Shown: piece by piece, positions 57,001 to 60,000 of the stretch
How positions within the stretch are numbered: the first letter of the stretch is position 1
Layout of the letters: each line of letters begins with the position of its first letter
Program-made: the position numbers
Source: Escherichia coli O157:H7
GTDB taxonomy: Bacteria > Pseudomonadota > Gammaproteobacteria > Enterobacterales > Enterobacteriaceae
NCBI RefSeq assembly: GCF_013167455.1
Contig: NZ_CP038328.1
Reading direction: 5' to 3' (one strand)
Length of the DNA: 64,000 nucleotides

Positions 57001-60000
57001 CTGGCAGAAACTATTGCAGCAGAAGCGAACAGCCGTCTTGCCCGGCAGCAAATGGAACAAATGCTCAGTCTGCAGGAGAAAATTATTAGTGATACCGGCG
57101 GTTCATCAACCGTTACCATTTTTCTGAATAATTACAGAAAAATTCAACAGGAAAGATATGAAAACGGCGAGATCAAACTCAACACGCTGAAACAGAAAGC
57201 GGCCCCTCTCAGGGTATTTGATGAACGTTTTGGCACCAGACCGTTAGATGCCATAACCGTAAAAGATGTGGTATCAGTACTGGAAGAGTACAAGGCCAGA
57301 GGACATAACAGAATGGGACAAATTTTCAGGAAAGTACTGATCGATGTTTTCCGGGAAGCTCAGCAAACGGGCGATGTCCCGCCAGGCTTTAACCCTGCAG
57401 AATCGGCAAAAAAACCGCAGGTGCGGATATCAAGACAGCGACTGACTTTTGATGAGTGGATGATGATTTATAACGCAGCGGAAAAGGATGGTTACTTTTT
57501 ACAGCGCGGTATGCTGCTGGCACTGATGACAGGCCAGCGCCTTTCAGATATTTGCAAAATGCAATTTTCGGATATCCGGGATGGTTATCTTCATGTCGAA
57601 CAGCAAAAAACAGGAACCCGGATTGCCATCCCTCTGGCTCTGCGTTGCGATAAATTAAATCTCACCCTGGATGATGTGGTGTCATCCTGCCGCGATTGCG
57701 TTCTTAGTCCGTGGCTATTGCACCACCATCACGCGAAAGGGACAGCTAAGCGCGGCGGGATGGTTAAGCCAGCAACATTAACCGTTGCATTTAAAAAAGC
57801 CCGGGATTCTGTGGATTACAACTGGCGTGCTAATGGCACCCCTCCCTCTTTCCATGAGCAGAGATCTTTATCAGAGCGATTGTTCAGAGAGCAGGGGGTT
57901 GATACCAAAATTTTGCTAGGCCATTCGAATCAAAAAATGACCGATATTTACAACGACGCACGCGGTAAGGAATGGAAAAAACTGGTCATTTGATGACCAG
58001 TTTTGCAGAGGGGTTTTGCAGAGGTTTTGCAGAGAAAATTAAAAACGATATCCTACGGAGAACATAAACACCCACGGATCCAGTCGTACCGAGTCTTTTA
58101 CGGTAGTAACACCAGATTTGTACTTAGCCGTGGTATCGATATCCATGTACCACACTGACATGTTAACCAACCAGTCACGGTTAATCAGATAATCAACCCC
58201 CACCTGCCCGGCAGCTCCCCAGGAATCTTTCAGACTGAGATCGGAAAGCCCCGCCTCTTTGCCATGATCGTTAAATCCATTATCAAAGAAGGTGGTGTAG
58301 TTAATACCTGCCCCAACATAAGGACGGAATTTGCTGCTGGCATCACCAAAATACCACTGCGCCATCAGTGTTGGCGGCAGATGATGAACGGTTGCAATAT
58401 CGCCGGTCGCCCGGGTGCCGATTTTATGGCGGAACGGCGTCGCTGCCAGTAATTCCACACCAATGTTGTCGGTCGCCATATAAGTAAACGTCAGGCCCAG
58501 TTGAGTGTTATTGGTCACGCTGAATCCACCCAGACTTCCTAACGTACCACCAGCACCTTCTGTTGGACGTACGGTTGCAGAACCTGCACGCATAAAAAAT
58601 TCGCCTGCTTCATGCGCAAAGGCACTGCCAGAGAGAAGAGTTGTTACTGCCAAAGCCGCCACTGTTAACTTTTTCATATCCGCTCCGTCGTTATGGTTAT
58701 AAAAACGTGACGAATATACCTACATTGGAGTAACAAATGATCCTACATAGATCACATTACATATGATAATTCACCATTTATTGATCTGGATTAATTTAGA
58801 AGTTGCATTGAGAATCCTGGTTAACGTGATTTAAATCAATTTTTAAATATTTTCGCTACGCAAATATTAACTCGTTCGCCACTTGCCGCGGTTTGCCCAC
58901 GCCTGAAGGCCAGCAATTACCTCCGCTTTACAAAGATATGCTTTTCCATACAAGACCTGATGCTGCCACCCGAGGCTTAACCAGGGTACAATTGCCCGCT
59001 AATTAACACCTGCATAAAACTCAAGGAGAGTGCATGTCTATCACGGCGCAGTCCGTATACCGTGACACCGGAAATTTCTTCCGTAATCAATTTATGACCA
59101 TTCTGTTGGTATCGTTGCTATGTGCGTTTATCACAGTGGTGTTAGGGCATGTTTTCTCACCCAGTGATGCACAGCTTGCGCAGCTCAATGACGGCGTGCC
59201 CGTTAGCGGCAGTAGTGGGTTGTTCGACCTGGTTCAGAATATGTCACCGGAACAGCAACAAATTTTGCTGCAGGCTTCAGCGGCGTCCACTTTTTCAGGA
59301 TTAATCGGTAACGCCATTCTCGCCGGAGGCGTAATATTAATTATCCAGCTGGTGTCTGCGGGTCAGAGAGTCAGTGCGCTGCGAGCTATTGGTGCCAGTG
59401 CGCCGATATTGCCAAAGTTATTTATTCTGATTTTTCTGACTACCCTTTTAGTACAGATTGGCATCATGCTGGTGGTCGTTCCGGGAATTATCATGGCCAT
59501 ATTACTGGCCCTGGCACCGGTGATGCTGGTACAGGACAAAATGGGCGTTTTTGCCTCGATCCGTAGCAGTATGCGGCTGACTTGGGCGAATATGCGTCTG
59601 GTGGCACCCGCAGTACTGAGCTGGTTGCTGGCAAAAACACTGTTGCTGCTTTTTGCCTCTTCTTTTGCCGCATTAACCCCGGAAATTGGTGCCGTACTGG
59701 CGAACACCTTGAGCAACCTGATTTCAGCCATATTGCTCATCTATCTGTTCCGCCTGTATATGTTGATTCGCCAATAACCTTAAGCATTTGATTACGGAAT
59801 CGTAAAATGAAGCAGTTTCTTGATTTTTTACCGCTGGTTGTCTTTTTCGCGTTTTACAAAATTTATGACATCTATGCGGCTACTGCGGCGCTGATCGTCG
59901 CCACGGCGATTGTGCTTATCTATAGCTGGGTTCGCTTTCGTAAGGTTGAGAAGATGGCCCTGATCACTTTTGTTCTGGTGGTCGTCTTCGGTGGCTTGAC

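Follow-up and report, generated by a model that had tools for sequence, protein, structure and literature searches.

In a 64,000-nucleotide stretch of the Escherichia coli O157:H7 genome (contig NZ_CP038328.1 of assembly GCF_013167455.1; we call this whole stretch the window), the integrase gene int of a prophage runs towards the 3' end of the outer-membrane protein gene ompW. The locus raises the question of where phage DNA gives way to host DNA, at which bases the two were joined, and what the direct repeats between the two genes are for. The int stop codon is at 57993 on the + strand and the ompW stop codon at 58039 on the - strand, so the ends of the open reading frames (ORFs) bear out the 45-bp spacing (57994-58038) given in a preliminary description of this DNA, which also proposed that 57994-58130 is a phage attachment junction at the ompW 3' end. 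We conclude with high confidence that 57994-58157 is the int-proximal B-O-P' junction, equivalent to attL of phage lambda, of a lambda-like PPompW prophage inserted in ompW, and that the repeats are very probably arm-type sites for its integrase (Int). Sequence comparison places 57994-58129 as the phage P' arm of this junction. Position 58130 is the first base of the block that is identical to attB, so the interval first proposed coincides almost exactly with the phage-derived P' arm.

The prophage and its insertion in ompW are already published, and the junction is an ordinary one that is mechanistically unsurprising. In the sections cited here, Nakamura et al. (2021, PLoS Pathog; PMC8112680) describe lambda-like PPompW prophages of Shiga toxin-producing and enteropathogenic E. 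coli that are inserted in ompW with a 121-bp attL/R; attP was sequenced by PCR from PPompW genomes of O145:H28 strains that had excised and circularized after mitomycin C, and the PPompW prophage is reported there not to be packaged. The element in the window belongs to this group, because ompW is split by the prophage and the Int protein is 100% identical to those in the PPompW GenBank records (LC567818-LC567841), where membership asks for more than 90% identity to the reference Int. The DNA of int, P' arm and core matches these records at 99.9% identity. The int-ompW region is 100% identical to that of other O157:H7 genomes, as is the first 6 kb of the window to strain EDL933, and of 5426 complete E. 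coli genomes, 1714 (~32%) share this int-ompW junction.

The other side of the insertion is visible by comparison with other genomes. In prophage-free K-12 and Nissle, yciE directly adjoins ompW with no insert between them. A BLAST comparison of PPompW_132418 with the window, together with the EDL933 match, indicates that the window begins ~3.4 kb inside the prophage, and in EDL933 the far junction lies ~3.3 kb to the left of window position 1, as anticipated by the suggestion that the left-end att copy would be outside the window. Consistent with this, neither yciE nor a native ompW remnant nor a P arm is present anywhere in the 64 kb, so the far junction is not inside it. We compared the far junctions of EDL933, O157 Anguil, L1_E925, PPompW_132418, AH20K059 and AH19K002, and they retain, beside yciE, a native ompW 3' remnant (K-12-type in the first four) that extends to the equivalent of 58157 and is then followed by the phage P arm. 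An uninterrupted attP is also available, in the phage record CP025907.1, where the int stop is followed in turn by three copies of GTTTTGCAGAG, by 93 bp that copy the 3' end of ompW, by the core of 28 bp, and then by an AT-rich P arm and GTTTTGCAGAA. The adjacency of yciE and ompW without the prophage, the native remnant at the far end, the attP of CP025907.1 and the published PPompW site thus all place an attachment junction at the ompW 3' end. The OmpW C-terminus is not identical to that of prophage-free alleles, and the core does not map elsewhere.

The recombination genes are intact. The excisionase gene xis (56637..56885, + strand; Pfam PF07825 Exc, E = 1.3e-07), which is annotated both by RefSeq and in PPompW records, overlaps the start of int (56863..57993, + strand), and int encodes a lambda-family tyrosine integrase with matches to PF09003 (Arm-DNA-bind_1, residues 2-71, E = 7e-22) and PF00589 (E = 1.3e-16). 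Over its full length the protein shares 36% identity with lambda Int, and the six catalytic residues are all present: R226, K249, H331, R334, H354 and Y363 correspond in the alignment to lambda R212, K235, H308, R311, H333 and Y342. It is closer to the Int of phage 4A7, which targets icd, and to relatives of that protein (50.8% identity) than it is to lambda Int.

Between the int and ompW stop codons we found three exact copies of GTTTTGCAGAG on the + strand, at 58000..58010 (outermost), 58013..58023 (middle) and 58024..58034 (core-proximal), with start-to-start distances of 13 and 11 bp. There is no further exact copy in the window, and the 9-mer GTTTTGCAG has a frequency elsewhere of about one per 50 kb, so that chance falls far short of explaining the cluster. 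The preliminary description was right that there are three direct repeats, although the 11-mer as written there (ttttgcagagg) is exact in two copies and the third ends in ...GAGA. All three copies are kept in other lysogens and in attP. A fourth copy, consisting of GTTTTGCAG plus AG, AA or GA, occurs in the same orientation ~125 bp past the core in four diverged P arms–it reads GTTTTGCAGGA in EDL933 and PPompW_132418, ends in ...AGAA in Anguil, 204576 and L1_E925, and ends in ...AGAG in AH19K002–and when three of the P arms are aligned together their homology ends just after this copy. The repeated sites therefore lie apart from the core on both arms of attP, three on P' and one on P. About 19 bp core-ward of the P-arm copy there is a match to the integration host factor (IHF) consensus WATCAANNNNTTR, exact in three of the four P-arm types and with one mismatch in the fourth. 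We predict an attP of ~290 bp, bounded by the four copies of GTTTTGCAG.

The same layout is found in relatives of Int that use other targets. Phage 4A7 (Int 50.8% identical over 98% of its length) targets icd, whose 3' end it also carries, Providencia phage PSTCR8lys (51%) uses a Providencia site, Klebsiella phage ST13-OXA48phi12.4 (45%) lies beside dcp, and vB_EcoS-640R1 (44%) lies beside potC. In all four, three direct copies of RTTTTGGNGRR come directly after the int stop, with a spacing of 13 and then 11-12 bp, and 4A7 also has a P-arm copy. As a control we put lambda in the same orientation: from the int stop onward come its sites P'3, P'2 and P'1 and then the core, and its outer P1 site is oriented like the P' sites. 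The motif thus changes between phages and its position, number and spacing stay constant, which is strong comparative support for P' arm-type Int sites. Taken with the arm-binding domain of Int, the P-arm copy and the attP, these triples favor the earlier proposal that the repeats are candidate arm-type sites; very probably the GTTTTGCAGAG copies are the PPompW variant of an arm-site motif shared by this clade of integrases. Literature searches on the repeat motifs returned nothing relevant, and those on the arm sites of phage 21 nothing useful. When species-representative genomes were scanned for the double repeat, we recovered only E. albertii and two chance matches, with no sign of a broader host range.

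The interval also contains a perfect 12-bp inverted repeat forming a hairpin (57978..58004) that spans the int stop and has T runs on both strands, and this invites the reading that the interval is mainly a transcription element, in which the hairpin and the U-rich repeats end the int and/or ompW transcripts or form a regulatory RNA and the repeats are not Int sites. The RNA fold of the hairpin is far better than that of shuffled sequences on both strands (z-scores: + strand, -3.5; - strand, -5.9). Because the native ompW terminator hairpin stays behind at the far junction, in a lysogen the int-stop hairpin is the first strong one 3' of ompW, and on the ompW-sense strand a T run comes after it; from its sequence it is possible that the hairpin serves as a two-way terminator, for int and for an ompW that has lost its own. 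As an account of the whole interval, however, we consider this very unlikely. A simple terminator scan did not call the hairpin, and a search of Rfam over 57400-59100 gave no match at E <= 1. The hairpin covers just the first 5 bases of the first repeat and none of the other two, and the related phages keep the triple repeat with their terminator elsewhere, which in 4A7 is inside the icd copy. A role in transcription can in any case coexist with arm-site function.

A slightly less probable reading still is that the three repeats are a functionless tandem duplication in the int-ompW spacer, the product of replication slippage. Slippage does occur here, because O157:H7 strain 3-5-1 has four copies of GTTTTGCAGAG through a 13-bp duplication (locus positions 495-552), so the copy number is not fixed, and binding of Int to the repeats is itself argued from comparison. 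The strain MS 196-1 has GTTTTGCAGAA as its first copy, and the two strains together indicate that some variation in the repeats is tolerated. Slippage within one spacer would not, however, account for an equivalent triple of another motif that is found, at the same place and equally spaced (13/11), in four relatives of Int with other targets, nor for the single copy of the motif at the outer limit of the conserved P arm of four diverged phages; and the arm-binding domain of Int needs sites of this kind. We therefore retain the assignment of the repeats as candidate arm-type sites.

Where the exchange took place can be narrowed within ompW. The published 121-bp att corresponds to 58037-58157 in the window, as given in the cited sections of PMC8112680 and in record LC567822.1, which annotates it as a "duplication due to insertion". 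Only its right-hand part, the 28 bp GTGGTATCGATATCCATGTACCACACTG at 58130..58157, is identical in the K-12 attB, in the attP of CP025907.1, and at both junctions (the one in the window and the far one in EDL933), and for this reason we restrict the core to these bases. The core was expected to overlap or abut the ompW 3' end; it is indeed inside ompW, but not beside the stop codon, as it lies 92-119 bp within the ORF. To the left of 58037 there is no homology to K-12. Between 58037 and 58090 the window is near-identical to K-12, with 4 mismatches; from 58091 to 58129, which encodes the tip of the last beta-hairpin, it is strongly diverged; from 58130 to 58318 the aligned part of ompW is 100% identical; and beyond this there are scattered single-nucleotide differences (98% identity overall from 58037 onward). 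Since the attP of CP025907.1 carries the same 93-bp copy, the segment 58037..58129 (- strand) is phage DNA that re-completes ompW: alignment with the K-12 attB, the far junctions and attP shows that it supplies the stop codon and codons 183-212 (~30 codons). The part of the gene beyond the core, 58158..58677 (- strand; codons 1-174), is host-derived, as judged from its identity to K-12.

Pairs of junctions from single lysogens point to the right-hand end of the core as the site of exchange. Within the core, two bases separate the B2-type attB, as in Nissle, from the phage version: the equivalent of 58138 is A and not G, and that of 58153 is G and not C. In AH20K059 the int-side junction has G and C at these two positions and the far junction has A and G, so if its host was Nissle-like the switch lies to the right of 58153. 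In AH19K002 the int-side junction has G, G and T at 58138, 58153 and 58156 and the far junction has A, G and C, which places the switch to the left of 58156. E. albertii NBRC 107761 has the same series of int, triple repeat, ompW 3' copy and core, which there meets rlmC at ...CACACTGG followed by CAGTTG, so that the switch is at the right edge of the core; judged by its sequence this junction is probably either an insertion at a secondary site or a rearrangement. The same junction creates an rlmC'-'ompW fusion ORF (locus positions 5631-6035). From these three sources, strand exchange probably occurred at approximately 58151..58158, the putative overlap region, which covers codons S174-V175-W176; this position comes from junction pairs and not from a map of cleavage. 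In phages that rebuild a gene, homology runs from the crossover to the end of the gene, and a crossover at the right edge of the core fits this rule. A crossover at or near the ompW stop codon, within 58037-58090, with the diverged 58091-58129 as merely a host ompW allele, would fit the near-identity of 58037-58090 to native ompW and the variability of native alleles in this loop (for example the 217-residue allele of E13), but it has next to no probability, because the far junctions have the K-12-type version of 58091-58129 whereas the int-side junction and the free attP have the diverged one, which puts the exchange to the right of 58129.

Several observations besides the variable copy number pull the other way when the PPompW junction is read as having three arm sites and a crossover at the right edge of the core. 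The arm-site function of the repeats rests on analogy and conservation. There is one clear copy of the motif in the P arm where lambda has two, and inspection of the aligned P arms by eye gave no convincing candidate for an inverted second site equivalent to lambda P2. Matches to the IHF consensus are not above chance by count, and there are none in the P' arm. The mapping of the crossover presumes that the B2 lysogens had a Nissle-like attB before integration, and the E. albertii junction may be a later rearrangement and not a secondary-site insertion. Finally, the int-side junctions of EC8 and AH19K002 have G at 58153 where AH20K059 has C, which requires allelic variation among the phages, a heteroduplex in the overlap region, or later gene conversion; segregation of a heteroduplex, phage allele variation or gene conversion could each blur the position of the crossover.

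In the mechanism that we infer, Int would act as a heterobivalent tyrosine recombinase that joins the core of attP to the identical 28 bp in ompW, with strands exchanged at about 58151-58158 (codons 174-176). Its N-terminal domain would bind the three GTTTTGCAGAG repeats of the P' arm, and these, the P-arm copy and host bending proteins (possibly IHF) would assemble an intasome for integration and, with Xis, for excision. The exact cleavage positions and the roles of IHF and of the hairpin belong to the same proposed scheme. Integration leaves the last ~37 native codons and the native terminator beside yciE, ~3.3 kb to the left of the window, and ompW is re-completed by the phage copy, which contributes 7 identical codons and then a segment with 8 residue differences, most of them around the tip of the last beta-hairpin.

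OmpW in these lysogens is therefore a host-phage chimera. The chimeric gene is an intact 212-codon ORF (58039-58677, - strand) with a full-length match to the Pfam OmpW family (E = 9e-81). Relative to K-12 OmpW (PDB 2F1T/2MHL) it has the changes N185K, L188S, G190V, A191T, Q192T, Q193V, H194K and A208V. An altered C-terminus had been recognized from the start, and it was read as consistent with phage-supplied sequence, which the presence of the same 93 bp in attP and of the native version at the far junction supports; its extent, given as the last ~20 residues, needs correction, because the 8 changes fall in the last 28 residues and are mostly 19-28 residues from the end. They cluster around the point where the last two strands turn, which is predicted to be extracellular loop L4. 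This assignment uses the 8-strand barrel topology with periplasmic termini and the position of the changes, because an AlphaFold2 model of the chimeric protein (mean pLDDT 41.6) was too poor for use.

The same loop varies in other phages and hosts. A related prophage in MS 196-1 (locus positions 540-700) carries an ompW 3' cassette of another kind, longer by 15 bp (5 residues), which gives a 217-residue OmpW, and the prophage-free strain E13 (locus positions 2893-3075) has a native 217-residue ompW allele of similar shape; the loop is thus variable in both hosts and phages. In E13, ompW adjoins trpA directly and yciEFG are missing. The cassette in the window changes 7 residues at the tip of the last beta-hairpin of OmpW. 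OmpW is the receptor for colicin S4. One could imagine that the phage-borne ompW 3' end is a swappable cassette for the L4 tip, by which lysogeny converts a surface receptor, and if so the sensitivity of about one-third of sequenced E. coli to colicins, phages or antibodies could be altered; we regard this as a speculative and rather improbable idea.

Two differences from PPompW_132418 were noted elsewhere in the prophage. A block of ~8 kb (5886-13878) is absent from PPompW_132418 and, by the EDL933 annotation, contains nleA, nleF and nleH1-2, an nleG-like pseudogene, a degenerate tyrosine integrase (~7707-8701) and a tail-fibre remnant. The block resembles a leftover of a second phage that inserted into the prophage or recombined with it, in line with the prophage-in-prophage theme of the cited sections of PMC8112680. 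At 2619-5060 an ISEc8 element (IS66 family) interrupts the effector region relative to PPompW_132418, with a fragment of an IS256-family transposase on one side.

We rejected the idea that the window is collinear with its best match, the O157:H7 strain ECP19-598 (NZ_CP066753.1), because the upstream prophage arrangement is different there. In that genome (2945000-3039000) another lambdoid prophage, whose integrase is truncated, comes before the int-proximal part of the ompW prophage, with uspF before it in turn, and the effector region and yciE are not at that upstream position, which suggests a large rearrangement between prophages. On the other side of the junction, a pseudogene fragment of the YkgJ family (~58917-59006) lies between ompW and yciC in all the strains inspected, including K-12, and the AH19K002 prophage has a full ykgJ-family gene near its P arm. 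Another attB within a prophage is traced in the cited sections of PMC8112680 to the ykgJ-ecpE region; the 21-bp attB-in-PP_1 of that paper is absent from the window.

The result matters mainly for annotation. The junction sets the right boundary of an O157:H7 effector prophage that carries nleA, nleF, nleH, nleG and espM. To the published 121-bp att we add the 28-bp shared core, a probable crossover at 58151-58158, a predicted attP of ~290 bp bounded by GTTTTGCAG copies, and the clade-wide repeat signature, in which three copies of RTTTTGSNGRR spaced 13 and 11 bp apart just after an int stop may be used as a marker of attP for any target of this integrase clade.

Among known systems, PPompW is the same element, and its 121-bp attL/R is 58037-58157 of the window. 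The cited sections of PMC8112680 treat the whole 121 bp as att and do not split it into a 28-bp identity block and a 93-bp imperfect gene copy; nor do those sections contain a crossover map or mention the repeats. The window prophage differs from PPompW_132418 by its ~8 kb of additional effector and pseudo-integrase DNA. The resemblance to lambda extends to the arm-binding domain and catalytic residues of Int, the overlap of xis with int, the three direct arm sites at the int stop, and the succession of a core and an AT-rich P arm with an outer site in the same orientation. In lambda, however, the arm motif is of the CAGTCACTAT type and not GTTTTGCAGAG, the P' arm is ~100 bp shorter and does not carry a gene 3' end, and attB is in the gal-bio intergenic region and not within a protein-coding gene.

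In these last respects the closer parallel is with phage 21 and e14, which insert close to the 3' end of a protein gene, icd, and supply a slightly different replacement end; the icd duplication of e14 is 163 bp (PMC6379469). The ompW element shares with that type a crossover inside the ORF, an in-frame substitute 3' end, and an Int in the clade that contains icd-targeting enzymes. Its nearest counterpart in our comparisons, the icd phage 4A7, has an Int that is 51% identical, with a triple repeat in the same layout after the int stop and a P-arm copy. For phage 21, Wang and colleagues in 1997 reportedly proposed that repeated dodecamers act as its arm sites and described its attP as enlarged, since it has to include the 3' end of icd. 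The ompW system differs from the icd systems at motif positions 7-8 (GCAG here, GGGG there) and in having ompW, not icd, as its target, and its replacement end alters the predicted surface loop of an outer-membrane protein and not a cytoplasmic enzyme.

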